Shown here: one piece after another, positions 9,895 to 31,575 of the stretch | Layout: each line of letters opens with the position of its first letter | Position numbering within the stretch: the first letter of the stretch is position 1 | Source: Nitrososphaeraceae archaeon | GTDB lineage: Archaea; Thermoproteota; Nitrososphaeria; Nitrososphaerales; Nitrososphaeraceae | Length of the DNA: 32,000 bases | Assembly (NCBI GenBank): GCA_023251115.1 | Contig: JAHEZK010000011.1 | Location: 1 to 32,000, forward strand | Direction: 5' to 3' | Position numbers and translations under genes: made by a program | Notes under the pieces: model-generated | The model's database searches: none | Told to the model about the DNA's origin: nothing | What the model saw: the letters and a program-made list of their open reading frames with translations, nothing else

Positions 9895-9941
9895 TGGCAT
9901 TATTTTCCCTAGACAAATTATAAAAAAATAAAAAAATTGTG

Positions 9942-14334: not shown

Positions 14335-15663
14335 TTGATCAAGCAAAGAGATGAAAATAATTTGCGCGACAATTATGATGTATTGATCATTGGTGGTGGC
14401 ATATTAGGCTGTTCCATTGCTTATTTCCTTTCCATCATGACAAATTCCTCAATTATGCTAATGGAAAAGGAAAAAAACGTTGGTCTGCATACAAGCAGCA
14501 GGAATACTGGAAAAGTTCATGCGCCCTTTTACTATGACCCAGAAAAAAAACCGTCCACTGCAGCCTACACAATAAGGGGATATGAAATGATAAAGCGTTA
14601 TTGCGCGTTTCATAGTTTACCGTTTAAAGAAGATGGAGTTGTTGAAGTTGCAACAGATGACAGGGAAATTGATGTCTTGATCAAACACGTTGAATGGGCA
14701 CGCAGGAACGGACTGAATAATGAGGAAATAAAATTTTTAAGTAAAAATGAAATGCTTGAGATTGAGCCTAATGTAAAGTGTGAATCTGGACTTGTGTGTT
14801 TCCGGGACGCCTCAACTGATTATGGTCTCATAAATCAAAAACTAAAGGAAGACGCAGTCAAATTTGGCTGTAATACATCATTTAAAAATAAATTCAGAGA
14901 AATTTGTTCCAATACAAATACAGGAGCAAAGAGAAGAATGACAATAATTGGAACTGCTAAAAATATAACTTCAGATTATGTAATAAATGCAGCTGGGGGT
15001 AATTCGCTAGATATTGCGCATAGTGTTGATCTTGCCAAGGAATTTACTGACCTACATTTTAGAGGAGAATATTTAACAGCGCCACCAAAATATAGTAACC
15101 TTACCAAAAGAAGTATCTACTCGGTTCCGCGATATACAGATTATCCTTTTTTGGATCCCCACTGGATTAGGAGAGCCGATGGAAGATGCGAAATAGGACC
15201 AAATGCGGTTCCTGTATTTAGTCCGTACTCATATAACTTGGCTGATAACTTGAAAAATGTAGTTCCAAAAATTTTTAAATCCTCTAAATTAGGAGTAGTA
15301 AAATTGTTTTTAAATAAAGAGTTTATACGATTGGTATCGAATGAATTATCTAGTTCTTTATCCAAAACAAACATGATAAATAGGGTAAAGAGATTTTTGC
15401 CCTCATTGAATTCATCTGATTTTAAACAAAGAGGTATGTCTGGTATTAGATCATTGTTAATCGATAAAAATGGAAACTTTGCAGCTGAGAGTCTACTTGT
15501 GGAAAATGAATCTTCGTTGCATATATTGAATTACAATTCGCCTGGTGCGACTGGAGCACTGCCTTTTGCGGCAAATATTGTAAGACAATTGGTTCAAAAG
15601 AATATAGTAAATCCAACATCAAGAAGAGTTGTTGATTCTCCATTTACAGATGAATATATGTAA
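14335..15663 (+). CDS. FAD-dependent oxidoreductase, L-2-hydroxyglutarate oxidase/dehydrogenase-like
   Basis: 442 aa. N-terminal dinucleotide fold YDVLIIGGGILGCSIA. FRGEY...GPNAV and NYNSPGATGALP blocks parallel the E. coli LhgO sequence as I recall it. A TTG start is needed to include the GxGxxG motif. Confidence 0.75.
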   Translation: MIKQRDENNLRDNYDVLIIGGGILGCSIAYFLSIMTNSSIMLMEKEKNVGLHTSSRNTGKVHAPFYYDPEKKPSTAAYTIRGYEMIKRYCAFHSLPFKEDGVVEVATDDREIDVLIKHVEWARRNGLNNEEIKFLSKNEMLEIEPNVKCESGLVCFRDASTDYGLINQKLKEDAVKFGCNTSFKNKFREICSNTNTGAKRRMTIIGTAKNITSDYVINAAGGNSLDIAHSVDLAKEFTDLHFRGEYLTAPPKYSNLTKRSIYSVPRYTDYPFLDPHWIRRADGRCEIGPNAVPVFSPYSYNLADNLKNVVPKIFKSSKLGVVKLFLNKEFIRLVSNELSSSLSKTNMINRVKRFLPSLNSSDFKQRGMSGIRSLLIDKNGNFAAESLLVENESSLHILNYNSPGATGALPFAANIVRQLVQKNIVNPTSRRVVDSPFTDEYM

Positions 15664-15755
15664 TTGTAAGTGTCTCCTGAAAGCATTCTATGATATCTAA
15701 TCTGCATCTAATATTATATTATAGTATATTAAGGGAATTTTGAAATAACTATTGA

Positions 15756-15829
15756 GGGGTTGTTGTCTAGCTTGGTATGATGCCAGCCTCGGGCGCTGGA
15801 GGTCGTCGGTTCAAATCCGACCAGCCCCA
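15756..15829 (+). tRNA. tRNA-Pro (anticodon CGG)
   Basis: Manual cloverleaf. Acceptor GGGGUUG/CAGCCCC. Anticodon stem CCAGC/GCUGG with loop CU-CGG-GC (G37). T arm GUCGG-UUCAAAU-CCGAC. Discriminator A. 74 nt. Confidence 0.9.
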
Positions 15830-15858
15830 TGACTCTAGTAGTTCTCTAATTGGGTTCA
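15808..15858 (+). repeat. attL-like direct repeat (3' part of tRNA-Pro plus 29 nt downstream)
   Basis: Core 15818-15858 matches 30047-30087 at 38/41. The extended repeat 15808-15858 matches 30037-30087 at 45/51. Confidence 0.85.
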
Positions 15859-16650
15859 GTTGAAATAAGAGTGAATAAAATGCAGCAACAAAAACAACAA
15901 AGTCAAGAGGTATCTCTTACCAGTGCATATTCCTTATTTGTATATGCTATAAGAACTCAAATAACAAGGGATTACTATCTTAGAAGATTAAGAGCGTTCT
16001 TTGATTTTATCAAATTACTTCCAAATGCAAAGATAGAACATAGATGCAACCATTTTGCTGCAATTGCTATAAAAGATAATGGATGGACATTTAGTAAAAT
16101 TATTGCTTTTTTACAATTTCAAAAAGAAAGAGTGGAAAGAGAAGAAATTACAGCAGCAACACTCTATAACTTTGTAAAAGCACTCAAGTTATTTTGTGAA
16201 ATGTCTGATGTTCCTGTTTCATGGAAAAAAATAACAAGAGGGCTACCAAAAGTCAGAAGGTTTGCTGATGACAGGCCCCCAACTATAGAGGAAATTCGTA
16301 AAATGATTGAATATCCCGATAGAAGAATGAAGCTAATTATATACACTATGGCTTCTTCTGGAATCAGGCTTTGAGCATGGGATTACTTACGTTGGAAGGA
16401 TGTAGAACGTATTGAAATAATTGCAGTTGCTATGAACTATGATAAAATTTATAGATATTATACCCTTAACAGACAAGAATTAGCACCTGGAGAGGCTCTA
16501 AATCTTTTGAATAATAAGGAACAATTCATTGTATCCTTTGACGGTAAATCATATGAATTGGATGAAAGTTTTTTTAATATTAACTATGGTGACTTATCTA
16601 AAACAAATAGAGATATAATTGATCGCTTGCCGAATAGGCATAAAAATTAA
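15850..16650 (+). pseudogene. Tyrosine recombinase/integrase, decayed
   Basis: N-terminal SAM-like region and the first catalytic-Arg box (IIYTMASSGIRL-stop-AWDYLRWKDV). In-frame TGA at 16372-16374 sits where related integrases carry Gly. The same frame continues to 16650 but contains no HxxR or catalytic Tyr segment. Probable original start is ATG 15880. Confidence 0.7.
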
Positions 16651-16829
16651 TGTTTTATCTTTGTCTAATGAGATTGATATTCATTCGATAAGAAATTATT
16701 AATTATAATCTTGTATTTTGGATTCTATAATCTGAAAATTGTTCATTAGTATCATTATGCGTTGCAGTTGAATAAATCCAAGATATGTTGATACTAGCCT
16801 TTGTACTTCACATTCTTGGTATTCCAGAA

Positions 16830-16858
16830 TGTGGATGTTCTCTCTCTATATGAGATTG
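16830..16858 (+). repeat. 29-bp perfect direct repeat, left copy (pairs with 27953-27981)
   Basis: tgtggatgttctctctctatatgagattg read at both sites. Here it is non-genic: the VDVLSLYEI frame stops after 5 more codons. Confidence 0.9.
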
Positions 16859-16982
16859 CTAGGATATATTAAAAGACATTCATAGCTAAAGCTTTAACTC
16901 ATTAAGTTGACAGATCCGTCTATGCATCAGAAAACTTTTATACAATACTTTCATAGGCCTAATAAAAGGGTTCATTTCAAGA

Positions 16983-18845
16983 ATGCCAGATATTAGATGG
17001 CGAGAAAAAAGTGTGTTCATAGCAATTTTGACGATCATATCATTATCACCTTTAAGTTATTCTTTTTTTTCTTATGCACAAAACAGTACAAATACAAATA
17101 GTATAGGCATAAATATTACTGACGTGTCAGTAACATCTGAAACACTGATAAAGACTGGTAACGATACGATCAAAGTCTTTGTAGCAAAAAAAGTTATTAC
17201 AATGGATCCTGGTTGGCCTAATGCCACAGCTATCGCTGTGAAAGATGGCAAGATATTGTCTGTTGGATCTTTACAGGATCTCAAGCCTTGGCTGGATCAC
17301 TATCCTCATGTGATTATTGATACTTTTAAGGATAAGGTGATAATGCCCGGATTCATTGAACCGCATGGACATCCTATCATTGGAGGTATCACACTTACTC
17401 GGCCTCTGCTGGTTTATCGTGACACTTTGAATCCATACGGACCAGCGTTTGATGGCTTGAAATCCAAATCAGAAGCAATAGTCAAACTTCAGGAATACGA
17501 AGCAAATATGGGACAGAATGGGACAAATCAGACCCTTTTTGTATGGGGATATGACCCAACTACGATGGGTGAAAGATTATCAGTTGATGACTTAGATTCA
17601 GTCTCAAAAGATCGTCCTATCGTGGTTTGGGATGCTTCAGAACATGAAGCATATGCAAACACTGCAGCAATGAAGAAACACAATATAACAAGCGAATCAA
17701 CCAGGATAAATGGAGTAGGAGCAGACGCAAATGGTGAACCTAATGGTCAATTCATTGGAGCCAAGGCCGCATCCTTGATACTTGCGCCAGAGATTGAGGA
17801 TATAGCTACACCAGAGAGTTTGCAAGAGATCTTGCATTATATTGTGGATCTTAGCCGCCAAGGAGGAATTACCACAACCTCAGAACTTGCTATGGGTATA
17901 GTTCTCGGCGTCGAAGAAGAAGCAAAAATCCTTAAACAATTTTTTGATGATCCCACAACTCCAATGCGTGTTGTAGCAGTGGTAGATGGATTGTCAGCTG
18001 GTATTGAAAAGAAAAGTGAAGCCATCAACTATTCGCTTTCTCTACATAATAATAATAGTAGTGATAAGACTATATTTAATGGAGTCAAGTTTTTTAGCGA
18101 TGATTCATTTCTGAGCCTTAAAATGCAACCAAACTACCCAGGATATATTGATAATCATACTGGATTATGGAATAATGCTCCTGGTGAAGACTTCGTTAAA
18201 CTCATCTTACCATGGTGGCTTTCGGGATTCCAAATTCATATCCACACAAATGGGGGTGCTTCTCAGGATTCGGTGTTGCATTCCCTGGCTGCATTACAGA
18301 ATGAGAAGCCTAGGTTTGATCACAGATTTACGTTTGATCACTACGGTTTATCAACGTCTTCTCAGGCCTTAAAATTAAAGGCTCTGGGTGCAGTTGCTAG
18401 TGTGAATCCATATTATGTATATCTTCGTGGTGAGCTAAACGAAAAGTTTATTGGAACAGATGTTGCTGAAAAGGCCGCAAGATTAGGAACCCTTACCAAT
18501 GCTAGCGTTCCAACTACCTTACACTCTGATACTCCTATTGGAGAACCTAGACCATTGGAATGGGTTTGGATTGCAGTGAACAGGTTGGGGCTCTCCGGAG
18601 AAGTGTTGGCTCCAAGTGAAAGAGTAACAGTCGATGACGCACTCAAGATGATCACAGTTAATGCTGCTTTCGCATTAGGAATGGATGACAAAATCGGAAG
18701 TATAGAACCTGGCAAGTTTGCTGACTTTGTGATCTTAGATCAAGATCCGTACGAAGTTCAGCCAGGGAAGATTAGAGATATTGGAGTATGGGGCACAGTT
18801 GTAGAAGGGCAGATCTATCCTGCTAGCGAAATTAAACCTCAATAA
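16983..18845 (+). CDS. Secreted Amidohydro_3 (YtcJ/AepA-like) metal-dependent hydrolase, paralog 1
   Basis: 620 aa. Signal-like N-terminus MPDIRWREKSVFIAILTIISLSPLSYSFFSYA. PGFIEPHGHP (HxH metal motif). C-terminal GSIEPGKFADFVILDQDP typical of the amidohydrolase 3 family. Confidence 0.85.
   Translation: MPDIRWREKSVFIAILTIISLSPLSYSFFSYAQNSTNTNSIGINITDVSVTSETLIKTGNDTIKVFVAKKVITMDPGWPNATAIAVKDGKILSVGSLQDLKPWLDHYPHVIIDTFKDKVIMPGFIEPHGHPIIGGITLTRPLLVYRDTLNPYGPAFDGLKSKSEAIVKLQEYEANMGQNGTNQTLFVWGYDPTTMGERLSVDDLDSVSKDRPIVVWDASEHEAYANTAAMKKHNITSESTRINGVGADANGEPNGQFIGAKAASLILAPEIEDIATPESLQEILHYIVDLSRQGGITTTSELAMGIVLGVEEEAKILKQFFDDPTTPMRVVAVVDGLSAGIEKKSEAINYSLSLHNNNSSDKTIFNGVKFFSDDSFLSLKMQPNYPGYIDNHTGLWNNAPGEDFVKLILPWWLSGFQIHIHTNGGASQDSVLHSLAALQNEKPRFDHRFTFDHYGLSTSSQALKLKALGAVASVNPYYVYLRGELNEKFIGTDVAEKAARLGTLTNASVPTTLHSDTPIGEPRPLEWVWIAVNRLGLSGEVLAPSERVTVDDALKMITVNAAFALGMDDKIGSIEPGKFADFVILDQDPYEVQPGKIRDIGVWGTVVEGQIYPASEIKPQ
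17063..17070 (+). other. T8 homopolymer in the signal-peptide codons of paralog 1
   Basis: Counted directly. The homologous tract in paralog 2 (22404-22410) is T7. Confidence 0.9.
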
Positions 18846-19134
18846 AAATGTTTTTTCTCGACTCGGAATAGCTACTAAGCGTTAACAAATGAACTATCAT
18901 AAATTAATCGATAGAGGCTTAACGACAAGAGATATAGAGAATAGTATTTATCACAGATATGGGCAGAATCCGAATGTTGTGCATAAATTTCACGTACTCA
19001 GGTTTCGTTAACAAGAGATAGAAAGAGTAGGACATATTTTCGAGATAGTAGTATCTGTCAAATAGATTGCAACAAAAAATATTAATGACAAAATCGGGTT
19101 GGTTATTTTTATTTGCTCTCAAACCTAAATCGGT

Positions 19135-21042
19135 TTAGTTAATAGTATGTATAGGTTCAATTTGACCTTTAAATCCCGGTGCTAGCATACCGGATAAAGA
19201 GATAGTTTGTATGTTGGTTGAGTTTAGTTCGGGGAACACATTGGCCACAGCTGTTGCAAATTGGGCTCCTCTTGGGATTATGACCCCCACATCTTCAGCA
19301 AATTTCCCATAAACCTCCTTCATAGTTTGTACAATATCTGGATGCAAATCTGCCACGTTTATGCTTTCTCCAAGGTCAACTGCGAGATCATACAATTTCC
19401 ATTCATTTGGCTTATCTGATGAGTCATGAATCCCTTTCCAATCACCCATGATCACAGTTGTCTGGTTAAAGAGTTCTGCTGGGACAGGTTCATTGTCTGC
19501 ATAGACATTCTGAGCTGTTCCATTAAGAACTGCTTTAAAAGATTTTCCCATAGGTGGATGAATGTCACGTCCTTGATAGGTTGTTGGATATGAAACATCT
19601 GCGAAGTCTAAAATTGTAGGGGTTATATCTGTCACATATACAAAACTTTTGATAATGTTGTTTGTAGCGTTTGAAGTTGGCAGCGGTTCCTTGATTAGAA
19701 ACGGTACTCTTGTTCCACCTTCATAAAAGCTTCCCTTGAAGCCTGAAAATGGGGCGACTGCCACATAAGTACCCCATGAACCGTAATTGAAGTCGGAATC
19801 TGCGTTACCAAGATTTGAAAAACTATTATTTATTCCAGCTATAAATTGTGCCGCTTGAGTTGCGTTGTATGCGCTACTATATTTGAATTTAGCCAGTTCC
19901 ACTGGCTCGCTTGTACCGTTGTCAGAAGTAAATAGAATTAATGTATTATCATATTGTCCAGTATCTTTTAGATATTGTATCACTCTACCCACATTCTTGT
20001 CCATATCCCCTATCATGGCTGCATGTACTGCCAATACTTTTGCTGCATAGTCTTTTTGATCATTGGTAAGACTCTCCCATGATTGATTTGGAGGAAGTCT
20101 TTGCGGGATGGTCATATTCGAAGGCCATATTCCTAATTGTTTCTGCTTTTCAAATATCTGCTCTCTTATCTTATCCCATCCTATGCTTCTATAGATTTTA
20201 TAGTATTTTTCTATGTTATCTGGTGGGGCCTGGAATGGCGTGTGGGCGACCTGAAAAGAAAGGTACGCAAAGAAGGGCTTATCATCTGCCTCTGTTTTTT
20301 TAAGGTATTCTAATATTTTGTCGGTATACAGGTCAGCCGCGTAAACTGTATTATTGCCAGGTCTTGGAACAACAGTATCATTTTCTACAAATGTTACTGT
20401 ATAGCCAGGTACGTATGTGTTATTATTGAAGTGATTAGCTCCATCCTGCAACAGAGTAAAGACATTCTCAAAACCTCTATCATAAGGCTTCGTTCCTGGC
20501 TGACCTTCTTTTCCAGATCCGGAGAGATGCCACTTGCCAGAAAGCATAGTGTTGTATCCTGCATCCCTTAATAGTTCTGCTACTGTTACTACTCTGTCGT
20601 TTATGTAAGTTTCATAACCCGGTTGGCCCACTTGATTTTCAGCTATTAGCTCATACATTGTTCCTATTCCACCTATATGCCAGTCAACGCCCGTGAGCAA
20701 TGACAGCCTGGCGGGAGAACACGTAGGAGCAGTATGGTAGTTAGTTAAAACTTTTCCTTCTTTTGCTAAAGTGTCTAAGTTTGGAGTTGAAATCTCACTG
20801 CCAAATGATCCAATGTCTGCGTATCCAAAGTCATCACCCAGTATTACCAAAAAGTTTGGGCGCTGACTCTGTGCTGAAGCGCCAGAAGTTTCAGAAAAAG
20901 CTTGATAAAAATTTGAATTTAAGGGTAATGATGACGCAGATATTGATGATATAATTGGTGGTAACCCAATGATTCCGCTAAGAATCATCCCCAACATCAC
21001 GAAGATAGAGAAACCCCGATTAATTTTCACTTCAACTGCCAT
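19135..21042 (-). CDS. Cys-type (formylglycine-dependent) sulfatase, secreted
   Basis: 635 aa. N-terminal hydrophobic segment. LVILGDDFGYADIGSFGSE and APTCSPARLSLLTG (C-x-P-x-R FGly motif followed by LTG). Confidence 0.9.
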   Translation of the reverse strand: MAVEVKINRGFSIFVMLGMILSGIIGLPPIISSISASSLPLNSNFYQAFSETSGASAQSQRPNFLVILGDDFGYADIGSFGSEISTPNLDTLAKEGKVLTNYHTAPTCSPARLSLLTGVDWHIGGIGTMYELIAENQVGQPGYETYINDRVVTVAELLRDAGYNTMLSGKWHLSGSGKEGQPGTKPYDRGFENVFTLLQDGANHFNNNTYVPGYTVTFVENDTVVPRPGNNTVYAADLYTDKILEYLKKTEADDKPFFAYLSFQVAHTPFQAPPDNIEKYYKIYRSIGWDKIREQIFEKQKQLGIWPSNMTIPQRLPPNQSWESLTNDQKDYAAKVLAVHAAMIGDMDKNVGRVIQYLKDTGQYDNTLILFTSDNGTSEPVELAKFKYSSAYNATQAAQFIAGINNSFSNLGNADSDFNYGSWGTYVAVAPFSGFKGSFYEGGTRVPFLIKEPLPTSNATNNIIKSFVYVTDITPTILDFADVSYPTTYQGRDIHPPMGKSFKAVLNGTAQNVYADNEPVPAELFNQTTVIMGDWKGIHDSSDKPNEWKLYDLAVDLGESINVADLHPDIVQTMKEVYGKFAEDVGVIIPRGAQFATAVANVFPELNSTNIQTISLSGMLAPGFKGQIEPIHTIN

Positions 21043-21321
21043 TACGTGATGTTTATAATAAAGATTTCTGGAATGATAGTAATCATCATAATTCTCTGCA
21101 TTCTTGCTGAATATTTCAGCTACTGATAATTGGGAATATTATGGAAGAATTGGTCTGTTGTTTCTAAGGCTATATTCATGAGCCAAAAAAGTTTGTTCTC
21201 TTGTTAGGTCCCAATTTAAATCATCTATGCTTTTATACAGTGCCACAAATACATAGATTTTGCTCAAGGAGGAGGTCTGTGGCTATTGACTCATTTATTA
21301 GAAATATCCTGATGATTATCA

Positions 21322-21960
21322 CTATATGCCCCTTCTTACATCCTTGCTGTATGCAATAACCATAATCAAACTTGTGGAACAAGTGGCCCAGTCAATAATT
21401 GGACGACCATATAATAAGTTTGATTTAAAGTCATTCTCGATATTAAAGTAAATTAAGGCCTGTACGATGAACAAGGCAAGAAAAATGATCCTAATCCAGT
21501 GAGACGCAATCCAGCCTCTCATGACTTTTAGGTGCGATTGTGGATCTGTTCTTGGTCTGGTAACAGACTTGTACAATGATATGTCATATACTATATCCCA
21601 GAGAAGAATAAATACAAAAATCATAGGGAGTAACATAATGATAATAGAAAAAAATCCTACGGAATTAACTAGATACCAATAAAGAAATAGTATGACTAAA
21701 TCTATAAAAAATATATATGGATTAATATCTGGCCGTTTCTTTATGATGAAATGGTACCCAATCCAACCTGCCACTACTGTCACATATACTAGAAGAAGTG
21801 TAAAAGCTTCGAACTTAAACGTATTAGGATCAAACAGTATTGCTTTATTATTATTCCAGCTAGTAGCAATGATCATGCCAAAAATAACATCTAGCAGTAA
21901 TTCGTATAATTCTGATGAATTCTTGTCGCTATATTTTTTTGTGTTACTGTCCTCCCGCAT
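21322..21960 (-). CDS. Hypothetical polytopic membrane protein
   Basis: 212 aa, about 5-6 hydrophobic helices, no recognisable motif. Confidence 0.5.
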   Translation of the reverse strand: MREDSNTKKYSDKNSSELYELLLDVIFGMIIATSWNNNKAILFDPNTFKFEAFTLLLVYVTVVAGWIGYHFIIKKRPDINPYIFFIDLVILFLYWYLVNSVGFFSIIIMLLPMIFVFILLWDIVYDISLYKSVTRPRTDPQSHLKVMRGWIASHWIRIIFLALFIVQALIYFNIENDFKSNLLYGRPIIDWATCSTSLIMVIAYSKDVRRGI

Positions 21961-22337
21961 CCTGCTTCTGTAGTAATATCGTGCTAGTATATTAGAATAT
22001 TCAGTTTGCAGTACGCTTGGTGCCTCATAGAATGGTGGTACGGTAACCGGCTAAGTAAATGTGTTCCATCTTTACAATTAATCTTATTAAGAAAGCAGAA
22101 ACTCGATATACTTAGAAAAAGGGAACAAACACATCAGCTCCACCTGTCAATCCTCATCTGCAGGATTTAGTTGAAAGAACAAATGCAAGCGCAGCTAGAT
22201 GATCTTGTCTCGTTAAAATAAGATGACTATCTGTTTTATTTGCTTTATTAGATGTCGTACTTACAGACATAGGTAACAAATTCACTTACAGACATAGGCC
22301 TAGTAAAAGGGTTCATTTCAAGAATGCCAAATATTAG

Positions 22338-24179
22338 ATGGCGAGAAAAAAGCGCGTTCATAGCAATTTTGACGATCATATCATTATCACCTTTGAGTTA
22401 TTCTTTTTTTCTTATGCACAAAACAGTACAAATACAAATAGTACAGGCACAAATATTACTGATGTGTCAGTAACATCTGAAAAACTGATAAAGACTGGTA
22501 AGGATATGATCAAAGTCTTTGTAGCAAAGAAAGTTATTACAATGGATCCTGGTTGGCCTAAAGGTACTGCGATTGCGGTAAAAGATGGAAAGATAGTTTC
22601 TGTTGGATCACTAGAAGATCTCAAGCCTTGGCTGGATCACTATCCTCATGAAATTATTGATACTTTTAAAGATAATATAATAATGCCCGGATTCATTGAA
22701 CCACACGGACATCTTATAATTGGAAGTATAACTATTACTCGTCCCCTGCTGAGTTATTTTGATATTTTAAATCCTTATGGTCCATCTTTTCATGGTCTCA
22801 AGACCAATGCCGAAGTTCTGGCCCAACTACGCGAATATGATAAAAGTATGGATTCAAACCAAACTCTTCTGGCATGGGGATATGATCCTAGTGCGATAGG
22901 TGAAAAAAGCTTGACGGTTCATGATCTAGATGGAATATCCATGGTTCGTCCTATCATCGTCTGGGACGCTTCAGAACATAAGGCTTTTACAAACACTGCA
23001 GCAATGAAGAAACACAATATAACAAGCGAATCAACCAGGATAAATGGAGTAGGAACAGACGCAAATGGTCAACCTAATGGTCAGTTCATTGGAGTCAAGG
23101 CAGCATCCCTTATTCTTGCCCCAGAATTAAAGAATCTACTTACACCTGAAAGTTTGCAAAAAACCACACGTTACCTTGTTGACTTGAGCCGCCAAGGAGG
23201 AATTACCACAAGTTCAGAACTTGCCTTAGGTGTTAGTTCTGGGAGTGTGGAATTTGAATCAAAATTTTTAAAAAAATTTTTTGATAACTCTTCAACTCCA
23301 ATGCGCGTTGTAGCAGTGGTCGACGGATTGTCAGTTCAAAAAGAAAAGAAGGATAACGCCATCGATTATACTCTTTCTTTACATAATAATAGTAGTGATA
23401 AGACTATATTTAATGGAGTCAAGTTCTTCAATGATGATGCGTTAATAGGCCAGTCAATGCAGGTAAGATATCCAGGATATATTGACGGTCATACGGGATT
23501 GTGGAATAATGCTCCTGGTGAGGGCTTTGTTAAACTCATGCTACCATGGTGGCTTTCAGGATTCCAGATCCATGTTCACAGTAGCGGGAGCGCTGCTCAG
23601 GAGTCACTCCTAAATGTGTTGGCTGCTTTACAGGATGAGAAACCTAGATTTGATCACAGATTTACATTTGATCACTATGGTTTGTCTACTCCTGCTCAGG
23701 CTTTGAAACTAAAGGCTCTTGGAGGAGTTGCAAGTGTTAATCCATATTTTGTGTACTATTATGGCGAGATAGATGAAAAGTATATAGGAACAGATGTTGC
23801 ACATACCGCTTCAAGATTAGGAACCCTTACCAATGCTAGCGTTCCAACTACTTTGCATTCGGATACTCCGTTGGGAAAGCCGAGGCCACTTGAATGGGTG
23901 TGGATTGCAGTAAATAGGTTTGGACAGTCTGGAAACGTCCTTGCGCCTAGTGAACGGGTATCAGTAGATGAGGCTTTTAAAATGATCACAGTTAATGCTG
24001 CTTACGCATTAGGAATGGATGACAAAATCGGAAGTATAGAACCTGGCAAGTTTGCTGACTTTGTGATCTTAGATCAAGATCCGTACGAAGTTCAGCCAGG
24101 GAAGATTAGAGATATTGGAGTATGGGGCACAGTTGTAGAAGGGCAGATCTATCCTGCCAGTGAAATAAAACTTCGATGA
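22338..24179 (+). CDS. Amidohydro_3 hydrolase, paralog 2 (signal peptide out of frame)
   Basis: 613 aa, collinear with paralog 1 (PGFIEPHGHL; identical GSIEPGKFADFVILDQDP). The homologous signal-peptide ATG is at 22324 in another frame (50-codon ORF 22324-22473) because the T tract is one nt shorter. The in-frame N-terminus MARKKRVHSNFDDHIIITFE is not signal-like. Confidence 0.75.
   Translation: MARKKRVHSNFDDHIIITFELFFFSYAQNSTNTNSTGTNITDVSVTSEKLIKTGKDMIKVFVAKKVITMDPGWPKGTAIAVKDGKIVSVGSLEDLKPWLDHYPHEIIDTFKDNIIMPGFIEPHGHLIIGSITITRPLLSYFDILNPYGPSFHGLKTNAEVLAQLREYDKSMDSNQTLLAWGYDPSAIGEKSLTVHDLDGISMVRPIIVWDASEHKAFTNTAAMKKHNITSESTRINGVGTDANGQPNGQFIGVKAASLILAPELKNLLTPESLQKTTRYLVDLSRQGGITTSSELALGVSSGSVEFESKFLKKFFDNSSTPMRVVAVVDGLSVQKEKKDNAIDYTLSLHNNSSDKTIFNGVKFFNDDALIGQSMQVRYPGYIDGHTGLWNNAPGEGFVKLMLPWWLSGFQIHVHSSGSAAQESLLNVLAALQDEKPRFDHRFTFDHYGLSTPAQALKLKALGGVASVNPYFVYYYGEIDEKYIGTDVAHTASRLGTLTNASVPTTLHSDTPLGKPRPLEWVWIAVNRFGQSGNVLAPSERVSVDEAFKMITVNAAYALGMDDKIGSIEPGKFADFVILDQDPYEVQPGKIRDIGVWGTVVEGQIYPASEIKLR
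22404..22410 (+). other. T7 homopolymer: frameshift site relative to paralog 1
   Basis: 80 nt separate the upstream ATG from the tract in both copies. The only length difference in that stretch is T8 versus T7. Confidence 0.9.
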
Positions 24180-24318
24180 AAATATCTTTTTGTCGGATTG
24201 ACGGAATGTAGAAGGGCGGTAACAACCAGAGACGATGCTAGAATAAGAATAAAGGTGAATCTTAAGAGATTCAACAATTAGCTATAAGTGCCCTCAGATC
24301 CTAACTAAATCATCTAGA

Positions 24319-24891
24319 ATGTCAGATCCAAGTTGGCTTATCGAATATTACAGGAGATTACAAGGAGATTATCAATCTTCCTTTGTACGAAGGGATAATG
24401 TAACTAATCGGACATATACTTTGCTTTTAGCTTTCTTAGCAGTTTATTTTGGTTTTTTTAGTGCAAATCTTCTTGCTCAACCGTTATGGAGATATTCCTT
24501 CGTCGTAGGAATCTTAGTTATAATGATTAGGTTTTTCTTTCAATCAATGATCATATATGGCTTCATACTAAGATATAGATACTTGAAGATGCGAATCGAA
24601 AGTCACTGGCTAGAAGACGGCCCTACTGTAGATGAAATTAAGAAGGATATGCTTAGGTATGATCATGGTGGGATTTTTCCTCCAACGGGTAGAAGTCGCC
24701 TATGGGATGGACAGATTCGTTCTGGCTTTATTCTCAACCTCATTATTCCGCTCATTCTCATTGCGAACGAATTGAACTTGGTCTCAGGAGCGACTCCAAA
24801 TATCTATTTGTGGATAATGATATTCCTAATAATTTATGTAATCACGGAAGTAATTAATTTCATAACCTTTGATCGAGTGAAAAAATCGTGA
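24319..24891 (+). CDS. Hypothetical membrane protein
   Basis: 190 aa. Soluble N-terminal ~35 aa, two central helices, a basic loop and two C-terminal helices. No family recognised. Confidence 0.5.
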   Translation: MSDPSWLIEYYRRLQGDYQSSFVRRDNVTNRTYTLLLAFLAVYFGFFSANLLAQPLWRYSFVVGILVIMIRFFFQSMIIYGFILRYRYLKMRIESHWLEDGPTVDEIKKDMLRYDHGGIFPPTGRSRLWDGQIRSGFILNLIIPLILIANELNLVSGATPNIYLWIMIFLIIYVITEVINFITFDRVKKS

Positions 24892-25968
24892 TGTTGCAAT
24901 CTTTTAGAAGCAGTCAAGACATATTAATTCTTTTTACACTCTCTGATGCTCAATTCATCGATAGAGTCTATCTTAAATTCAAATTTTGGTTCTTGCATAT
25001 CCGATCTCAACCTTGTAATTCATTAAGAATGCTAAATTGATTCATGCGTGTTTACTATCTCTATTCCTGATAAATGTGTTCTATAGCCTTGCTAAAACGA
25101 TCATGCAAGTCTGGGCTGGTTTACAACATATGCAAGTATCCCTGAGGTCTCTCAAGAGTCCTTTATATCACACATAAACTGATAACTGCCTTCCCTAGCT
25201 CTAACGCGGTAATAGCGGAAAAAGTATTCTTGATATACTCTTGCTTTTGTGCCTTTACCATCTCATCTTGTTGTTTACTCCAACTTCCTCTGGTATATTC
25301 AATTGAAAGTCGTCAAGTCCTTCTTCAAGTTCTTTTTTTGTTACGTCTGACTTCTATGTGTCGATTATAGCTTCATCTATTTCATCTAATAATTCTTGTT
25401 TTGAAACTTTTGGCCCTATCTCCAACCGGTTATTGTACAATATGTAAAAACTTATAATAGATTTACAGGACCTATAGCATCCAGAATTATTTCATTTAAT
25501 AGATAAAATCTCAAAAAAACAAAATGCTGATTCGCTTTAAGGAAAAAAGGTTCTCAAATTGGCCATGTAGTATTCATACAGTTAAAAGGTCATAACATCA
25601 TGTATGGATCAGTCGAGTCTTGAGATAGTAGGGAAATAGCCCGAATAATACAGGCAAAGTGCAGAATCAAGTTCTTCTATGGGCAAAGAATCAGGATCAG
25701 AAGATAACATTAACCCTGTGCTGGATCCAAATACCATGGCAAATAAGGCTTTTTGAATATTTTGGATAACCCTTAACTGCATAAAAAATATCTCGAGATT
25801 TCAAGTGGTCTATAATCTGTTCCTCTGGAAGGACATGGTGTTCGATTAGTCATAAATAACAATAAAACAAAATGAGTTGGTACTTTGACATACAAGCTCA
25901 AGTAGCAAGATGTCGATATCTCTTCCATTATGATTATTTCGAAAGAAAATAGAGCATGGATAGCATAG

Positions 25969-27510
25969 TCACCAGAGCACAGTTCCATTAAAAGGATCCA
26001 CCAACACTTTTTCTGCATAGTGACCTGAAGTAAAGTCAAACAGGTTTAAAATTGGACCAGCAATTGAGTCAAAAGATTGATCTCCGATTTGCCCAAGATT
26101 CCAATTATCTTCTATAAATCGCAGTATTGAAGCTTGGTCTATTATTTGGTGATCAACATAATTGATCTTTGCAAACGGCGAGATCACTAGAAATGGAAGA
26201 CGGGGACCATAGCCACACCGGTCGTCGTAGCGATCAGGAGCGGGTTTGCCGCATAAACCTAGACCAAGCAATCTATCATTTTCAGGGTCATCAGACTGGC
26301 TCACTATTGGAGGCATAACATGATCATACCAGCCGTCAGAATCATCATACGCTATTATGACTGCTGTGTGATTCCATTCAGGAAGGTTCTGAAGACGGTT
26401 TATAGTTTCTACGAGAAACGTCTGTTCGTCTAATGGGTTAGAATACCCTGCGTGTCCATCTTGGAAGGCTGCAGCCTTTAGGAAGCTCACAGCAGGGAGG
26501 TTCCCCAATTCAGCAGCGTCCCAGAAATCTATTAGATCATATTGATGATTTGCTTGGTCATTACTACCGATCATATGAACTGAGGTTGGAGCCAAATGGT
26601 GTGGATTAGCTGTTGTTTTGTAAAATTGAAATGGTTCATGGTGGGGAAGATAATCAAATAAAGATGCGTTCTCGTAGCTTCCATGAGTTGAACCGCAGAT
26701 TGGAGTTCTATTAGCAGTCCAATTAGTTGGTTTGAATCCACCTTGGAACCATCCCCAGGTAACATTAGCTCTGTTCAACAGATCTCCTACGTTAGTTCCA
26801 GCAAGAGAAACTAGTGGATATGATTTTGTGGCTGGGTTAAAACAATCATCATATAAAGGATTGGGATCACTTATCATGGTACCGTTTACTATAACATTTA
26901 TCACAGATCCATGAGAAAGCTTTTCAACATTAGTGGGTTCCACACCATGTGTTTGTCCTGAAACCAAGTTAATATGTCCGGGTGTTGAAGGACCAAAAAT
27001 AGAACCAAAGAAGCTGTCACTCATGGCATAGTGTTGTGCGTAGTTCCAGAGAGCAGTCACGGTATTTCCGTCAAAATAACCCATGGTTATGATTGGATCG
27101 CAACCTTTTGAAATTTGTTTGTTTGATTGAACAAATTTGTCCATGATACCACCATTATAAGCTTCTTGAAGCCTGCTATATTCATGATCGTTGTCACAAG
27201 TAGACGTTTGAGATCTAGGGATGCGAAACGGGTTGACCAGATTAGGATTATATGTCAAAAGCGTGCCAGAGAGGCCATTCACTGATGGTGTATTTGGTAA
27301 CTGACTGAAAGATGGTTCACCGGGTGGATTAACGGCATTAGGGTAAGTACCAAAGTAATGATCAAAAGAAACATTTTCCTGATATATAATAATTAAATGA
27401 TCTATCGGAGTAGCTATTTTAGCAATGGCATAAGTATCTATCAATGAAGTGCCAGACATCAAAATGAGCAATGAAAACAATAAGAATTTGACTCCTGTCA
27501 TTAGTTCCAC
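25969..27510 (-). CDS. Secreted phosphoesterase family protein (acid phosphatase AcpA / phospholipase C-like)
   Basis: 513 aa. Signal-like MTGVKFLLFSLLILMSGTSLIDTYAIA. HLIIIYQENVSFDHYFGTYP is the N-terminal signature of the PF04185-type phosphoesterases. Length is close to AcpA-type enzymes. Listed start is GTG 27510; ATG at 27501. Confidence 0.85.
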   Translation of the reverse strand: MELMTGVKFLLFSLLILMSGTSLIDTYAIAKIATPIDHLIIIYQENVSFDHYFGTYPNAVNPPGEPSFSQLPNTPSVNGLSGTLLTYNPNLVNPFRIPRSQTSTCDNDHEYSRLQEAYNGGIMDKFVQSNKQISKGCDPIITMGYFDGNTVTALWNYAQHYAMSDSFFGSIFGPSTPGHINLVSGQTHGVEPTNVEKLSHGSVINVIVNGTMISDPNPLYDDCFNPATKSYPLVSLAGTNVGDLLNRANVTWGWFQGGFKPTNWTANRTPICGSTHGSYENASLFDYLPHHEPFQFYKTTANPHHLAPTSVHMIGSNDQANHQYDLIDFWDAAELGNLPAVSFLKAAAFQDGHAGYSNPLDEQTFLVETINRLQNLPEWNHTAVIIAYDDSDGWYDHVMPPIVSQSDDPENDRLLGLGLCGKPAPDRYDDRCGYGPRLPFLVISPFAKINYVDHQIIDQASILRFIEDNWNLGQIGDQSFDSIAGPILNLFDFTSGHYAEKVLVDPFNGTVLW

Positions 27511-27941
27511 TAGTTTACTTCTCAGTTTAAAGATATTAAGTTGTCTGATGCGTAGACAGGGCTTGTTAACTTAAGAACCATCCCCTCCGATCATTTCAAC
27601 TAACCCACCAAACTTGATGTATCCAATTTTGTTATGCATGAATTCAAACAATTGAATCCACTTCTATACATGTACAGATCACACTGTTTTTTTAATACAC
27701 GTTCCAAGAACAGTTCTGTTGATAGGTTCTATCGCTATCCAGAGTCATGCTACATCATTACCAATCTGTATCATGGTTTCATCTATTGCAAACACACTCA
27801 CTCTCTTTCTAACATAGATTCTATTAGGCATAAATCGTAGAACGTACTTCTAAACAGTAACATGACTACTTTACATATGGTTGTAATGCCGTCGATGTAT
27901 TTCGAAAGCTCAACCCTAGAAAGTATAAGTAAAGTGCATAT

Positions 27942-28331
27942 ATGATATACAGTGTGGATGTTCTCTCTCTATATGAGATTGATAGTTTCGATCGCTTCAA
28001 GAGTAAAGCGGAGCAGGAGATTCCGAATTTACCTGAAAATCTTCAGTCAGCTGCCAAAGAGGCAATTAATGATAAAACTTTTAAGAAGGAATACCTATCC
28101 CTAATAAATGCATATAAACTACTAGCAAAGGATCCCGAAGTAAAAATCTCCAGTGGTGATGACTTTTACTCAGATAACACAGTGAAAAAAGTGGCGGATA
28201 ATTTGAAGACTAGAGGGTTGGACGTCGTTTATAAAAAAGATGGTGACAAAAAGGAATTTCGTCTAAAAATTGATAGCAGTTTCCTTAAGGCATTAGGAGC
28301 ATTAATATCAAAAATTGCAGGACTATTCTAA
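27942..28331 (+). CDS. Hypothetical protein
   Basis: 129 aa, helical/charged, no motif. Its codons 4-13 are the right copy of the 29-bp repeat. Confidence 0.5.
   Translation: MIYSVDVLSLYEIDSFDRFKSKAEQEIPNLPENLQSAAKEAINDKTFKKEYLSLINAYKLLAKDPEVKISSGDDFYSDNTVKKVADNLKTRGLDVVYKKDGDKKEFRLKIDSSFLKALGALISKIAGLF
27953..27981 (+). repeat. 29-bp perfect direct repeat, right copy (pairs with 16830-16858)
   Basis: Identical 29-mer, here inside the 5' end of the 129-aa ORF. Confidence 0.9.
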
Positions 28332-28461
28332 GATTATGCGTGACATCTTTTTCTCGTCTTAGATTAAGTAAAATATTGGCTTCGTAAGCGGAAACATTAA
28401 CTTCAAGCAATTTAATAATATACTATATGAAGTCACACAAAATAGGAACACGAACTGAGGC

Positions 28462-28481
28462 TTCAAATCCGACAAACCCCA
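28462..28481 (+). repeat. Degenerate internal copy of the tRNA-Pro 3' end (att-like)
   Basis: ttcaaatccgacaaacccca versus tRNA-Pro 15810-15829 ttcaaatccgaccagcccca: 18/20, same orientation. Confidence 0.65.
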
Positions 28482-28523
28482 GATAACTATGATTTTAGAG
28501 TCTTGTGATGATAAGTTGGTATA

Positions 28524-28862
28524 CTATCGAGGCCCATAAAATATTATGACTGCTCCTAAAACTGCTACCATAGAGCCTATTATTTCAAATTTATCTGGTC
28601 TCTTTTTGTCTACCACCATTCCCCATAATATTGAAGAAATAATAAAAAATCCACCATACGCGGCATATACCCTTCCAAAATTTGAAGGCTGTAATGTAGG
28701 AATTATTCCGTAAGTAAAGAGTATGATTCCCCCAACTAAACCAAAGATTATTTTCTTTTTCTGTCTTATCCATAACCATACTAAATATCCTCCACCAATT
28801 TCAGCTAGTGCTGCTAAGAGAAACAGTCCTACTGAAGTAATAGAAGTAGTAATTTCATTCAT
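28524..28862 (-). CDS. YnfA/UPF0060 family small membrane protein (SMR-like), paralog B
   Basis: 112 aa, 4 TM. AEIGGGYLVWLWIRQKK and GRVYAAYGGFFI parallel E. coli YnfA (CEIIGCFLPWLWLKR; GRVYAAYGGVYV). Confidence 0.8.
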   Translation of the reverse strand: MNEITTSITSVGLFLLAALAEIGGGYLVWLWIRQKKKIIFGLVGGIILFTYGIIPTLQPSNFGRVYAAYGGFFIISSILWGMVVDKKRPDKFEIIGSMVAVLGAVIIFYGPR

Positions 28863-29242
28863 TTACGTTCACTTGATATCAACTTGTTTTTTCTGGGCAT
28901 ATAGAAAATAATCATGACTCCAATTAGTGATATAATGGCACCAATTATGTCAAACATATCTGGTCTTATTCCCTGTATAACCCAACCCCATAACAAAGCC
29001 ATTACAATGAAGATGCCCCCATAAGCCGAGTATATCCTATGAAAATGATGCGGTTGGAATGTTGGAATTATGCCATAGGTGAAAAGAACAAAACCGCCCA
29101 GGACACCAAGTATCCAACTCATGTCTTCTCTAAGCCAAAGCCAAACTAGGTAACCACCACCAATCTCACAAAATCCGGCTGAAAGGAAGAAGAATACTGA
29201 GATTAGTATTTTGTTCCAGCTAATTCTATCTCTATTTACCAA
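28859..29242 (-). CDS. YnfA/UPF0060 family small membrane protein (SMR-like), paralog A
   Basis: 127 aa, 4 TM. CEIGGGYLVWLWLRED and HRIYSAYGGIFIV. Its stop overlaps the start of paralog B by 4 nt. Confidence 0.8.
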   Translation of the reverse strand: MVNRDRISWNKILISVFFFLSAGFCEIGGGYLVWLWLREDMSWILGVLGGFVLFTYGIIPTFQPHHFHRIYSAYGGIFIVMALLWGWVIQGIRPDMFDIIGAIISLIGVMIIFYMPRKNKLISSERK

Positions 29243-29855
29243 CAGTCATTCCTTTGATGTATATTTTGCCAAATAGAATATACAATGAAATAGCAATTAT
29301 CGCGATTTGAACCCCCGCTACAATAGCATCCAATAAACCAATAGGTTCTGTTCCTAGACTAGAAATCCCTACCGTTCTAGAAGTAAAATAAATTCCTAAT
29401 AATACTAATGAACCGACTATGGCTATTATGTAAGGAACTTTACTGTTCCTTTTATCTAGTATCATCCATAATCCTATTGCAGCATAGCCAATTCCAGCAA
29501 TAATTGAAAGTGGAAATTCTAAAACCCTGCGTTGATTTTCAGATGTTTCTTGATGTAAGGTTTCTTCTGTTTCTTTGAGTTCGAGGTGTTTAGATTCGTT
29601 GGTGTTCTGTTCTGGTGCCTGCTCTTCTTGTAGACGCTGTACCGACGATTCACCAGATTCATTGTGAATTTCTAGTGTTTTCTCTTGATTCTCATTGTGG
29701 GCAGACTCCGTAGTTTCATCCTCTTGTCCTTCAACTAGCTGCAATCCGTGAGCTTCACTACTTTCAATACTTTCACCAAATATTGCAACTAAAAAGTATA
29801 GAGAGGATGTTGAGAACATCAAGAATGTTATAATGTAGACTAAAAATGATTTCAA
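29232..29855 (-). CDS. Membrane protein with acidic Glu/Gln/His-rich extracytoplasmic region
   Basis: 207 aa. N-terminal TM helix, an ~85-aa low-complexity stretch (EAHGLQLVEGQEDETTESAHNENQEKTLEIHNESGE...), then three TM helices. Overlaps the downstream ynfA-like gene by 11 nt. Confidence 0.55.
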   Translation of the reverse strand: MKSFLVYIITFLMFSTSSLYFLVAIFGESIESSEAHGLQLVEGQEDETTESAHNENQEKTLEIHNESGESSVQRLQEEQAPEQNTNESKHLELKETEETLHQETSENQRRVLEFPLSIIAGIGYAAIGLWMILDKRNSKVPYIIAIVGSLVLLGIYFTSRTVGISSLGTEPIGLLDAIVAGVQIAIIAISLYILFGKIYIKGMTVGK

Positions 29856-30036
29856 CTAACGTGAATTACTAGGCTTTATTCATAAACATTATGAAAAATC
29901 AAAATACCAAGGCGCGGTAGAATCCTATTATAGGAAGGATACTAGTCACAACGGCTCCAAACCTATGAATTAAAACATCGGTGTTCATTTGTCATAAATA
30001 ACATTTGATATTTGAATCTAAAAATCATGTCAATTT

Positions 30037-30087
30037 TGGTTCACAAACGACCAGCCCCATGCCTTTAGTAGTTCTCTAATTGGATTC
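30037..30087 (+). repeat. attR-like direct repeat
   Basis: ggttcacaaacgaccagccccatgcctttagtagttctctaattggattca. See attL for identities. Confidence 0.85.
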
Positions 30088-30104
30088 ATATTGTAAACAA
30101 TGTG

Positions 30105-30120
30105 CATCCGACCAGCCCCA
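30105..30120 (+). repeat. Second right-hand copy of the tRNA-Pro 3' end
   Basis: atccgaccagccccat is identical to 15815-15830. It is followed directly by tgggtt, which in attL occurs 20 nt further downstream. Confidence 0.8.
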
Positions 30121-30219
30121 TTGGGTTATTAGTTCCGCAATTTTAATCGTATGTTAAATAAAAAAGAATTGAATCGCTAATTTTATGACTAACTTTATGA
30201 CGCTGTGTCTTTCTTATTT

Positions 30220-31077
30220 TCAACCAGCGTTACCGCTACTGTATACAACAATGGGGTTTCCAAATGTTTCACCATTATCATTGCTCGACCTAAACATAAC
30301 TTGTTTTTCTCCGGGGTTAATATCAATCCAAGAAATGTATAAATTATTTCCTTGAGCAGCCATCCTTGCACCTATTGACCGGGCATCTGAAGAATTACTT
30401 ATATTTACAGTCTCGCCGAAGGTCTTTCCACCATCTGTACTTTTTGCCCATGATACTTCCCAGTTTCCTGTTGTGTTGTCCCACCAGAGCAGGTATTCGT
30501 TTTTATTACTAGATGCAGTAACAATCGTATCAACTGATATTGTGGATGGTGGGGGCGCTTTTAGCGTTTTGACTGGAGAACTACCGATATTTTTTAGCAT
30601 AACTGCATCGTCAAATGTCTTTCCATTGTCACTGCTTGCCCTCGAAAATACTTGCCAATCCCCGGTTTTATTATCCCACCATGAAACAAATACATTATTT
30701 CCCTCCGCAGCGATTTGACTATCAGCAGAAGCTCCCTTAGCATTGCTTAAGTTAATAGGATTACCGAATGTTTTCCCTCCGTCATTACTTGCAGCTGTAT
30801 ATACTTCATTGTTTCCTGTTTTGTTATCCCACCATGTAAGATAGATATTAGTGTCAGATACAGCCATTGATGCCCTTGGTCCAGAATATAGTTTGTCAGC
30901 ACCAACACGATCAATACCAGCAGCATATACTGATTGAAGTAAAGGAGCTGTTGCAATACTAATAGTTAGTATTATAGCTGTAATAATTCCTGACTGTAAC
31001 GAATTTCTTACAACCATTAATTTCACCTCGAAGAAGGTATTATACAAGAGTTTGTAATTTGGGGCTAGAGTGTACAC
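30220..31077 (-). CDS. Secreted BNR/Asp-box repeat protein (sialidase-like beta-propeller repeats)
   Basis: Four ~58-aa repeats, each with WWDNKTG-like and S-x-D-x-G-x-T-F boxes (SNDGGKTFG, SSDNGKTFD, STDGGKTFG, SNDNGETFG). Signal-like MVVRNSLQSGIITAIILTISIATAPLLQSVYA. Probable start ATG 31017 rather than the listed GTG 31077. Confidence 0.75.
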   Translation of the reverse strand: MYTLAPNYKLLYNTFFEVKLMVVRNSLQSGIITAIILTISIATAPLLQSVYAAGIDRVGADKLYSGPRASMAVSDTNIYLTWWDNKTGNNEVYTAASNDGGKTFGNPINLSNAKGASADSQIAAEGNNVFVSWWDNKTGDWQVFSRASSDNGKTFDDAVMLKNIGSSPVKTLKAPPPSTISVDTIVTASSNKNEYLLWWDNTTGNWEVSWAKSTDGGKTFGETVNISNSSDARSIGARMAAQGNNLYISWIDINPGEKQVMFRSSNDNGETFGNPIVVYSSGNAG

Positions 31078-31575
31078 AACTTTGTAATTAACTCCAAGTA
31101 ATATTGTAAATAAGAATCAGACTACGAGTTTTATTGTCCTATCCTAATATTAGCAGACCTCACTTATCCGCAAGGTTCAAATCCCGCCGGTCTAATGACC
31201 TTCAAGTTTCGTTTATGTGATTCTTATTTTTAGATAACTTCAATTTATTATCAAGAACTATAACTCAAAAGTTGATATATCAAGAAGGTTAGTATAGCTA
31301 TAATCTTATTAATGGTACAATGAATCAATAATTTTTTAATATTAGGAATTTCACGCGTCTACGGACTCTGCTCTACGAAGTCTATTTTTAACTCAACTGC
31401 ATTCATTCAAATTGCAGGTGATTTAGCTTATTGATATTAATATTAGTAAAGGCAATCTATGCCCAAATCAGGTTAAGTTATGACCATCAGTTGACTTATA
31501 ATATGCAGTTTCCGGAAAACACTTTACTAACGATAGAAATCAGCTAGTCAAAATTTGTGTATAAATTAAGACTAT

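Follow-up and report, generated by a model that had tools for sequence, protein, structure and literature searches.

A probable array of decayed tRNA-Pro-integrated elements in a Nitrososphaeraceae archaeon

Cryptic integrated elements (CIEs) of Thaumarchaeota have been surveyed; of the 68 elements mapped, 39 occupy tRNA genes, almost always the 3' end of the gene (PMC6563490). In the same survey the integrase is described as the only signature gene, metabolic cargo as usual and tandem integrations as known, such as the NitGar-E1/E2 proviruses and tandem casposons, while the core of the attachment site (att) has a median of 17 bp and the element a median of 17 kb (PMC6563490). The targets include tRNA-Pro and tRNA-Arg(TCG), with the tRNA-Pro passages of the supplement naming TGG, not CGG (PMC6563490). 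Here, we analysed a window of 32,000 nt of a Nitrososphaeraceae archaeon (assembly GCA_023251115.1, contig JAHEZK010000011.1, positions 1 to 32,000), in which a tRNA-Pro(CGG) gene is followed by what we read, with a probability of about 0.7, as an array of stacked, decayed elements integrated at this tRNA and belonging to a family that encodes a divergent tyrosine recombinase. The locus matches the thaumarchaeal CIEs, and the remark of an earlier note on this DNA that such elements have been described in Thaumarchaeota is borne out by the survey (PMC6563490). The main features are the following, with P and P' standing for the arms to the left and right of an att core.

15756-15829, + strand: tRNA-Pro(CGG), intact, integration target (attB); ARAGORN, and Rfam RF00005 with 58.5 bits
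15808-15858, + strand: junction J1 (attL type), T-loop and acceptor end, core CGACCAGCCCCAT at 15818-15830, P' arm GACTCTAGTAGTTCTCTAATTGGGTTCA at 15831-15858
15880-16428, + strand: tyrosine-recombinase (integrase) pseudogene, recognised by homology, an in-frame stop and missing catalytic residues
28427-28482, + strand: junction J2, proposed attR of element A, type-1 P arm (ATGAAGTC..AAATAGGAACACGAACTGAGGCTTCAAATCCGAC) and decayed core CGACAAACCCCAG
30016-30105, + strand: junction J3, type-2 P arm (..TGTCAATTTTGGTTCACAAA) at 30016-30047, core CGACCAGCCCCAT at 30048-30060, canonical P' arm at 30061-30088 and a leader of ~17 nt
30106-30149, + strand: junction J4, 16 nt identical to the tRNA 3' end (ATCCGACCAGCCCCAT), then a decayed P'-like arm (TATTAGTTC...)
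15831-28482: putative element A, dead integrase and hydrolase block
28483-30060: putative element B, two YnfA/UPF0060 genes and a 207-aa membrane protein
~45 bp within J3: putative element C, leader remnant
up to the window end: probable element D, BNR-like protein and a 128-aa open reading frame (ORF)

The tRNA-Pro(CGG) named in the earlier note was confirmed by both ARAGORN and Rfam, and in 14 related loci it stands beside the same left flank. The 41-mer at 15818-15858 is repeated in direct orientation at 30048-30088 with 38/41 identity, and the repeat extended from 15808 and 30038 reaches 45/51; both identities had been given before, with the second copy placed one nucleotide off, at 30047-30087. 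Three copies of the 13-mer CGACCAGCCCCAT, all on the + strand (15818, 30048 and 30109), stand against 0.2 expected by chance. When the last 23 nt of the tRNA were used as a query, a fourth copy resembling the tRNA 3' end appeared at 28460-28482 (19/23, including the exact 12-nt TTCAAATCCGAC), and 300 shuffles gave zero 23-mer matches at up to 4 or up to 5 mismatches. All copies of the att core, at 15818, 28460 (decayed), 30048 and 30106, are in direct orientation. Both ends are real and not assembly artefacts, since assemblies made independently from other samples contain the same sequence over 15460-18321 (99.9%) and 27488-30409 (99.76%).

Only 13 nt of the 41-bp repeat are shared core, and the 28 nt past the tRNA (GACTCTAGTAGTTCTCTAATTGGGTTCA) are not host sequence. 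The P' motif TAGTAGTTCTCTAATTGGATTCA stands after tRNA-Pro and before the integrase gene (int) in three of the loci fetched for comparison (L011, L012 and L096; L numbers denote such loci), is present too in L006 and L094, and the P' arm follows an attP-like site in L094. Duplication of the tRNA end holds for the core; the remainder is an element-side arm. What looks like a 41-bp repeat is, in this reading, the core joined to P' arms from two elements of one type, A and C, which explains why it seems much longer than the short cores of Thaumarchaeota, with the median length given above.

At its simplest, the earlier model has the two repeats enclosing one element. The closest relative of the window's int is that of L094 (82.5% nucleotide identity), which is full length but for one frameshift and includes LMGH and YYR. 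Upstream of it lie the P' arm, the core and a type-1 P arm, ATGAAGTC..AAATAGGAACACGAAC.G.GGCTTC.AATCCGAC, showing 84% identity over 55 nt to window positions 28427-28481; among the fetched loci this arm was found only there. The attR of the int-bearing element is most likely 28427-28482 and not the repeat at 30048, because the arm at the former matches that of the closest int relative. Past the J2 core, a short stretch is like the arm of L022 at 13 of 14 aligned positions, a tentative likeness, as 27 of 1000 shuffles score equally. The J2 core CGACAAACCCCAG has the A68 acceptor variant CGACCAACCCC, as do the tRNA-Pro genes of L002, L006 and L008, and may come from the tRNA end of another lineage.

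J3 holds the second repeat of the earlier note and its core is perfect. The ~17 nt at 30089-30105 resemble the leader upstream of int, and this int-leader is the only remainder of element C. TGTCAATTTTGGTTCACAAA, left of the second repeat, is an imperfect mimic of the tRNA T-arm. The type-2 P arm was also found in L005, L006, L020, L022 and L036; in L006 the core, the P' arm and the beginning of an int come after it, at a site 2.7 kb past the tRNA-Pro of that genome. At J4, the ATCC before the core fits the type-1 arm and not the type-2 arm, and the assignment of its P' arm is weak, with a 9/9 match to the arm of L095. L095 is another array-like locus (6064-6086, 9898-9966, 15384-15406 and 16236-16275), with two identical tRNA-like 23-mers, GGTTCAAATCCCACTGGCCCCAC, 9.3 kb apart around a P-core-P'-int site and no complete tRNA within 20 kb.

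An integrase-like ORF had been seen at the inner edge of the left repeat, reading inward, and it was found again as ORF 15850-16374 (TTG start, 174 aa), beginning inside or just after that repeat. The conserved ATG at 15880, common to the homologues, is the natural start and lies 22 nt past the P' arm. Pfam gave no match in the 174-aa ORF. The fragment has 1044 homologues, several of them labelled integrase by JGI and several from Nitrososphaeraceae metagenome-assembled genomes (MAGs), and an exhaustive search with a longer homologue revealed full-length members of 370-470 aa, whose alignment shows the catalytic set SSGIR, HGFRKFF, LMGH and YYRP. Three full-length homologues match PF00589 Phage_integrase at ~5-166 of 172 (E~1e-5), with scores of 24-25 bits, under the gathering cut-off of 27.1. 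A 25-member profile matched XerA in the PDB (5hxy, E=1.6e-5; 4a8e, 0.0026), and the family also matched NCBIfam recomb_XerA_Arch (E=1e-7) and a PHROG integrase (E=3e-5). By these alignments and profiles, the family is a divergent group of tyrosine recombinases common in Nitrososphaeraceae.

The window copy covers only residues ~14-187, the N-terminal ~45%. Its in-frame stop at 16372-16374 sits where box I has a conserved Gly (SSGIRL*AWDYLRWKDV), a position at which the homologues carry the intact box SSGIRLGAWDYLRW. The box I Arg (SSGIR) is the sole catalytic residue left; HxxR, His and Tyr are absent, and tblastn found no C-terminal part of int anywhere in the window. This copy is a pseudogene of the family and not a working member, because of the in-frame stop and the missing HxxR, His and Tyr; the gene is drifting as a pseudogene. 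The earlier assignment to the tyrosine recombinases stands, and because an intact integrase is found nowhere in the array, the array is fixed and its elements are immobile. A near-identical strain from another sample has a different int lesion, a 1-nt indel, and a domesticated N-terminal fragment was rejected, as near-identical strains bear different disabling lesions.

All int copies beside tRNA-Pro or att in L001, L003, L009, L011, L012, L041 and L096 are 5' fragments with truncation points varying from residue ~47 to ~300, and L094 alone is near full length; all 19 close int homologues on contigs of at least 10 kb are shorter than 305 aa. In L041 (1240-1740), an integrase of the same family lies beside CCCTCCGGGCCCG, directly after the gene of a BNR protein. 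The window's own tRNA-Arg(TCG), at 8427-8501, has exactly this sequence as its 3' end, and members of the family apparently target tRNA-Arg as well.

Scanning genome contigs with the DAO protein of the left flank yielded 18 Nitrososphaeraceae loci, of which 13 share the order tRNA-Arg...RadA-DUF790-NUDIX-DAO-tRNA-Pro. On the left flank, the DNA of L001-L004 resembles that of the window at 93-96% and that of L005 at 88%. The similarity ends at window position 15830/15831 in nine syntenic loci and, in two others, reaches 15846, a short way into the P' arm; the four genomes with 93-96% identity on the left flank diverge within 1-2 bases of the tRNA end. In L011, L012 and L096, similarity carries on into a homologous int remnant, and int remnants follow tRNA-Pro in L001, L003, L009, L011 and L012. 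The earlier statement that the locus carries the signature of tyrosine-recombinase integration at a tRNA 3' end agrees with both the int family and this break in synteny.

From its sequence context, tRNA-Pro(CGG) appears to be an integration hot spot, because at least five unrelated sequence types follow the same tRNA. For example, L096 shares the flank, the tRNA, the P' arm and an int fragment (81% identical) with the window, and its cargo differs, with two GMC oxidoreductases. L012 has proteasome, SPFH and USP genes 3 kb past the tRNA that are present in no other locus nor in the window. The cargo genes of the window were found in none of the 14 related loci, up to 10 kb downstream. The contigs of the MAGs L002, L003, L007, L010 and L018 end within ~1.5 kb past tRNA-Pro, L010 at the tRNA itself, as expected where assemblies break at a hot spot that varies and bears repeats.

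The proposed array would have arisen as follows. In each element, the integrase gene would directly follow an attP built from a P arm, a short core that reproduces the final ~13-16 nt of the tRNA, and a P' arm. Recombination in the core would insert the element, whose own copy of the core would restore the tRNA 3' end while the old end would come to lie at the distal border of the element. Related elements integrating one after another would then give a head-to-tail array with the newest member beside the tRNA. Tandem genomic islands at bacterial tRNA genes also arise by successive integrations. Direct observation covers the repeats, the family to which the integrase belongs, its truncation, the break in synteny and the arm motifs that recur in other genomes, whereas the order of events, the element boundaries and the arrival of the hydrolases as cargo are what we infer. 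An insertion at the 3' end of an intact tRNA, direct att repeats and an int beside att, three marks of a genomic island, are all present; atypical composition, a fourth, is not.

The genes of element B are as follows.

28524-28862 and 28859-29242, - strand: two UPF0060 genes (Pfam, NCBIfam)
29232-29855, - strand: 207-aa membrane protein (Pfam, NCBIfam)

The same three genes directly adjoin the type-2 P arm in L020/L022, and a degenerate arm in L039; they are a conserved right-end module of that element type. To the right of J4, two further genes were recognised.

30220-31017 or 31077, - strand: BNR/Asp-box-like secreted protein
31576-31962, - strand: 128-aa ORF

In L036, L041 and L020/L022, homologues of both adjoin att-like sites or an int of this family, and in L020/L022/L026/L039 they stand, differently arranged, a few kb or less from the UPF0060 block. 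With moderate confidence, we take the DNA that runs to the end of the window as one more remnant, D, rather than as the native flank, because of this company of att, int and the UPF0060 block and because J4 is P'-like. The integrated region had earlier been taken to end at 30120, but the array probably runs on to the end of the window, and the chromosomal right flank is not in view. At 31174-31196, GGTTCAAATCCCGCCGGTCTAAT resembles the T-loop and 3' end of another tRNA. This stretch gave no tRNA call, no Rfam match and no stable fold (z-score 0.04), and a missed tRNA was rejected on account of the empty Rfam search and the fold; it may be the att scar of an element targeting another tRNA.

Several points weigh against an array of stacked elements. 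The junction assignments rest on motifs of 25-55 nt, and neither J2 nor J4 has more than a weak P' remnant. The core of J2 is more decayed than those of J3 and J4, which is unexpected if A is the newest element, and L094 may be a tandem junction itself and not a true attP. An unoccupied tRNA-Pro site, for which the earlier note proposed to look in related genomes, was not found: none of the 18 loci of the left-flank scan has one, and all 14 syntenic loci have other DNA after the tRNA. This search was limited by the early ends of the window and of most contigs. No locus joins tRNA-Pro to the right side of the window, and in a metagenome scan with the right-side BNR protein (70 loci), the tRNA was found in 0 of the 42 loci scanned for it and the core 12-mer in 0 of 70. 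Element A with this cargo was not found a second time, and Pfam and PHROG scans revealed no genes for replication, conjugation or virions. An alignment search in IMG/VR gave no relatives of the integrase family. In the same database, searched for an excised or viral form, there was no exact match to the P arm, the P' arm or a 33-mer flanking the hydrolase block, and this block, with its own flanking repeat, may have entered the remnant of element A separately.

Composition likewise speaks against the array. The earlier note suggested comparing GC content, tetranucleotides and codon usage with the flank, and this comparison shows no difference: GC is 0.374 against 0.363 in the flank, GC at third codon positions 0.314 against 0.301, the codon-usage correlation of 0.96 equals the value within the flank and the tetranucleotide profile is not distinct. 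Atypical composition is a supportive, not a strictly defining, feature of tRNA-integrated islands. The likeness to the flank points to exchange within the family or long residence, and a recent import from a distant donor is disfavoured because composition and codon usage equal those of the flank.

Among the rival readings, the one that survives best concerns the hydrolase block at 16863-27952, which would not be cargo of a tRNA-integrated element and would instead derive from a later separate entry, marked by the 33-bp repeat, or from local duplication in a variable region, leaving the int remnant and the short junctions as the sole mobile-element parts. We consider this possible, though rather unlikely. 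The cargo of element A and the repeat are listed here.

16830-16862, + strand: 33-bp direct repeat, left copy (32/33 identity, sharp edges)
16983-18845, + strand: amidohydrolase (Amidohydro_3) copy 1, hydrophobic N-terminus (Pfam E=2.7e-55)
19135-21042, - strand: arylsulfatase-family protein (Pfam Sulfatase E=2.6e-51)
21322-21960, - strand: 212-aa hydrophobic protein, no family match
22338-24179, + strand: amidohydrolase (Amidohydro_3) copy 2 (Pfam E=6.8e-55)
24319-24891, + strand: 190-aa hydrophobic protein, no family match
25969-27510, - strand: phosphoesterase family, phospholipase C / acid phosphatase type (Pfam PF04185 E=9.7e-84)
27942-28331, + strand: 129-aa ORF, no function assigned
27953-27985, + strand: 33-bp direct repeat, right copy, codons 4-15 of the 129-aa ORF

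The two copies of the 33-mer TGTGGATGTTCTCTCTCTATATGAGATTG bracket the 11.1-kb block with sharp edges, and inside it the region 22293-24179 duplicates 16952-18845 (repeat families D1-D4, D6 and D7, 77-96% identity). Element A without the block would be a remnant of ~1.5 kb, and the block has native codon usage. In L092, similarity to a homologue of the 129-aa ORF starts at 27954, ~1 base inside the start of the repeat at 27953. The sulfatase has a best database homologue of 66% identity and its named matches are Nitrososphaeraceae, with 94-95% for the flank genes; its homologues, examined for signs of cargo mobility, stand in unrelated contexts. On the other side, no recombinase, transposase or Cas1 domain was found in the block, a search for terminal inverted repeats inside it gave an alignment score of 18 (shuffles: mean 16.5, maximum 26), and the 33-mer occurs in none of the fetched loci or viral contigs. 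A transposon or casposon was rejected for want of terminal inverted repeats and of a transposase or Cas1. In either case the block is part of the island, and relatives lack it at this locus.

A narrower version of this reading, in which the block would be a recombinase-less mobile cassette or a nested element with its att at the 5' end of a protein gene, seems to us improbable. If true, such a cassette would be a second, undescribed route of exchange among soil ammonia-oxidising archaea, inside tRNA-integrated elements, and the exchanged cargo would be enzymes scavenging organic sulfur, phosphorus and nitrogen.

The hydrolases of element A are probably secreted. The sulfatase matches the NCBIfam arylsulfatase at E=4e-39 with 134 bits against a cut-off of 481 bits and is assigned at family level only; the matches of the phosphoesterase to NCBIfam acid_phos_Burk and PC_PLC are both below the cut-off. 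Around the start of the amidohydrolase genes, 118 nt (16952-17069) are 96% identical between the copies while the coding body shows 77-90%, which points to gene conversion or to conservation of the promoter; the N-terminus of copy 2 differs. Between the genes of the membrane protein and the phosphoesterase, ~1 kb (24892-25969) is free of ORFs of 60 aa or more save for an 88-aa ORF overlapping its right edge, and has no similarity to any fetched locus.

The earlier model at its simplest, a single element of ~14.2 kb between 15818-15858 and 30048-30088 with the copies at 28460 and 30106 being incidental, is also improbable. It would account for the near-identity of the two repeats (38/41) and for an int at the left end, and its size would be typical of thaumarchaeal CIEs, whose median is 17 kb (PMC6563490). 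The 28 nt past the tRNA are, however, always linked to int, as expected of an element arm and not of a duplicated target. Moreover, the attP-like site of L094, the closest int relative, and the arm left of 28482 match, whereas the arm left of 30048 is of the other type, linked elsewhere to the UPF0060 block, and a third copy of the core follows 61 nt further right. We therefore prefer several stacked elements, with the int-bearing one most likely ending at 28427-28482.

Ancestral chromosomal DNA, with a break caused by loss or replacement in other lineages and not by horizontal transfer, is very unlikely. Composition and codon usage like those of the flank, Nitrososphaeraceae as the source of the named cargo homologues and the want of an empty site would fit it. 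Against this, the four genomes with 93-96% identity diverge at the tRNA end to within 1-2 bases, the locus has oriented att junctions and an int remnant, the sulfatase homologue reaches 66% where flank genes reach 94-95%, and other cargo stands behind the same tRNA and int. The earlier note named two findings that would speak against integration, a gene order conserved in relatives and a motif that proves to be a dispersed repeat, and neither was encountered. That the repeats are due to chance or to a dispersed genomic repeat unrelated to the tRNA is next to impossible, since only the shortness of the core speaks for it, while three 13-mers stand against 0.2 expected, shuffles yield no 23-mers, all copies share one orientation and elsewhere the motifs lie beside tRNA-Pro, beside int or as arm remnants in related islands. 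A provirus was rejected as well, with no capsid, terminase or virion matches in Pfam or PHROG and int being absent from IMG/VR.

For the interpretation of this genome, the genes of the array behave as strain-specific accessory genes. This means that the two amidohydrolases, the arylsulfatase, the phosphoesterase and the YnfA pair are to be treated as such and not to be counted in the core metabolism of the ammonia oxidiser, and that the contig right of the tRNA is unfit for synteny-based orthology. The locus also illustrates how the stacking of elements of the same type makes a short att core of Thaumarchaeota pass for a long repeat. The arm motifs, together with a divergent integrase family that Pfam misses, can be used for finding islands in Nitrososphaeraceae MAGs, whose contigs often break at tRNA-Pro.

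In comparison with SSV-type elements, the locus likewise shows an archaeal tyrosine integrase at a tRNA-derived att and only a fragment of int. In SSV, however, att lies inside the int ORF, with N and C fragments at opposite ends, whereas here att lies 22-50 nt upstream of the natural start, no C fragment is present in the window and the truncation varies. A split integrase of this type was rejected, as att is upstream of the shared start codon and tblastn found no int(C) in the window. The integrase may be of the non-split pNOB8 type. Like non-split integrases, it has its att upstream of the int start codon, which leaves the gene whole, and like XerA-like integrases, full-length members have R...HxxR...H...Y and match XerA by profile; unlike these, the family is very divergent, falls below the Pfam cut-off and has 370-470 aa with a coiled C-terminal tail.

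As in known tandem integrations, the elements stand head to tail, with hybrid junctions made of the P arm of the newer element, the core and the P' arm of the older one; here, they are heavily eroded, one to ~45 bp, and at least two arm types are present. As in the CIEs, insertion occurred in the 3'-distal part of a tRNA, the core has 13-16 bp compared to a median of 17 bp, the integrase is the only recognisable mobile gene, the size is comparable and the cargo is of metabolic and membrane-protein type. Differences from the CIEs are the integrase being a truncated pseudogene, the stacking of several elements in a decayed tandem array, and the host and target, an uncultured Nitrososphaeraceae MAG outside the survey and a tRNA-Pro with CGG in place of the TGG named in its tRNA-Pro passages. 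The locus adds no new mechanism to these systems and is an ordinary example of a well-known type of genomic island.

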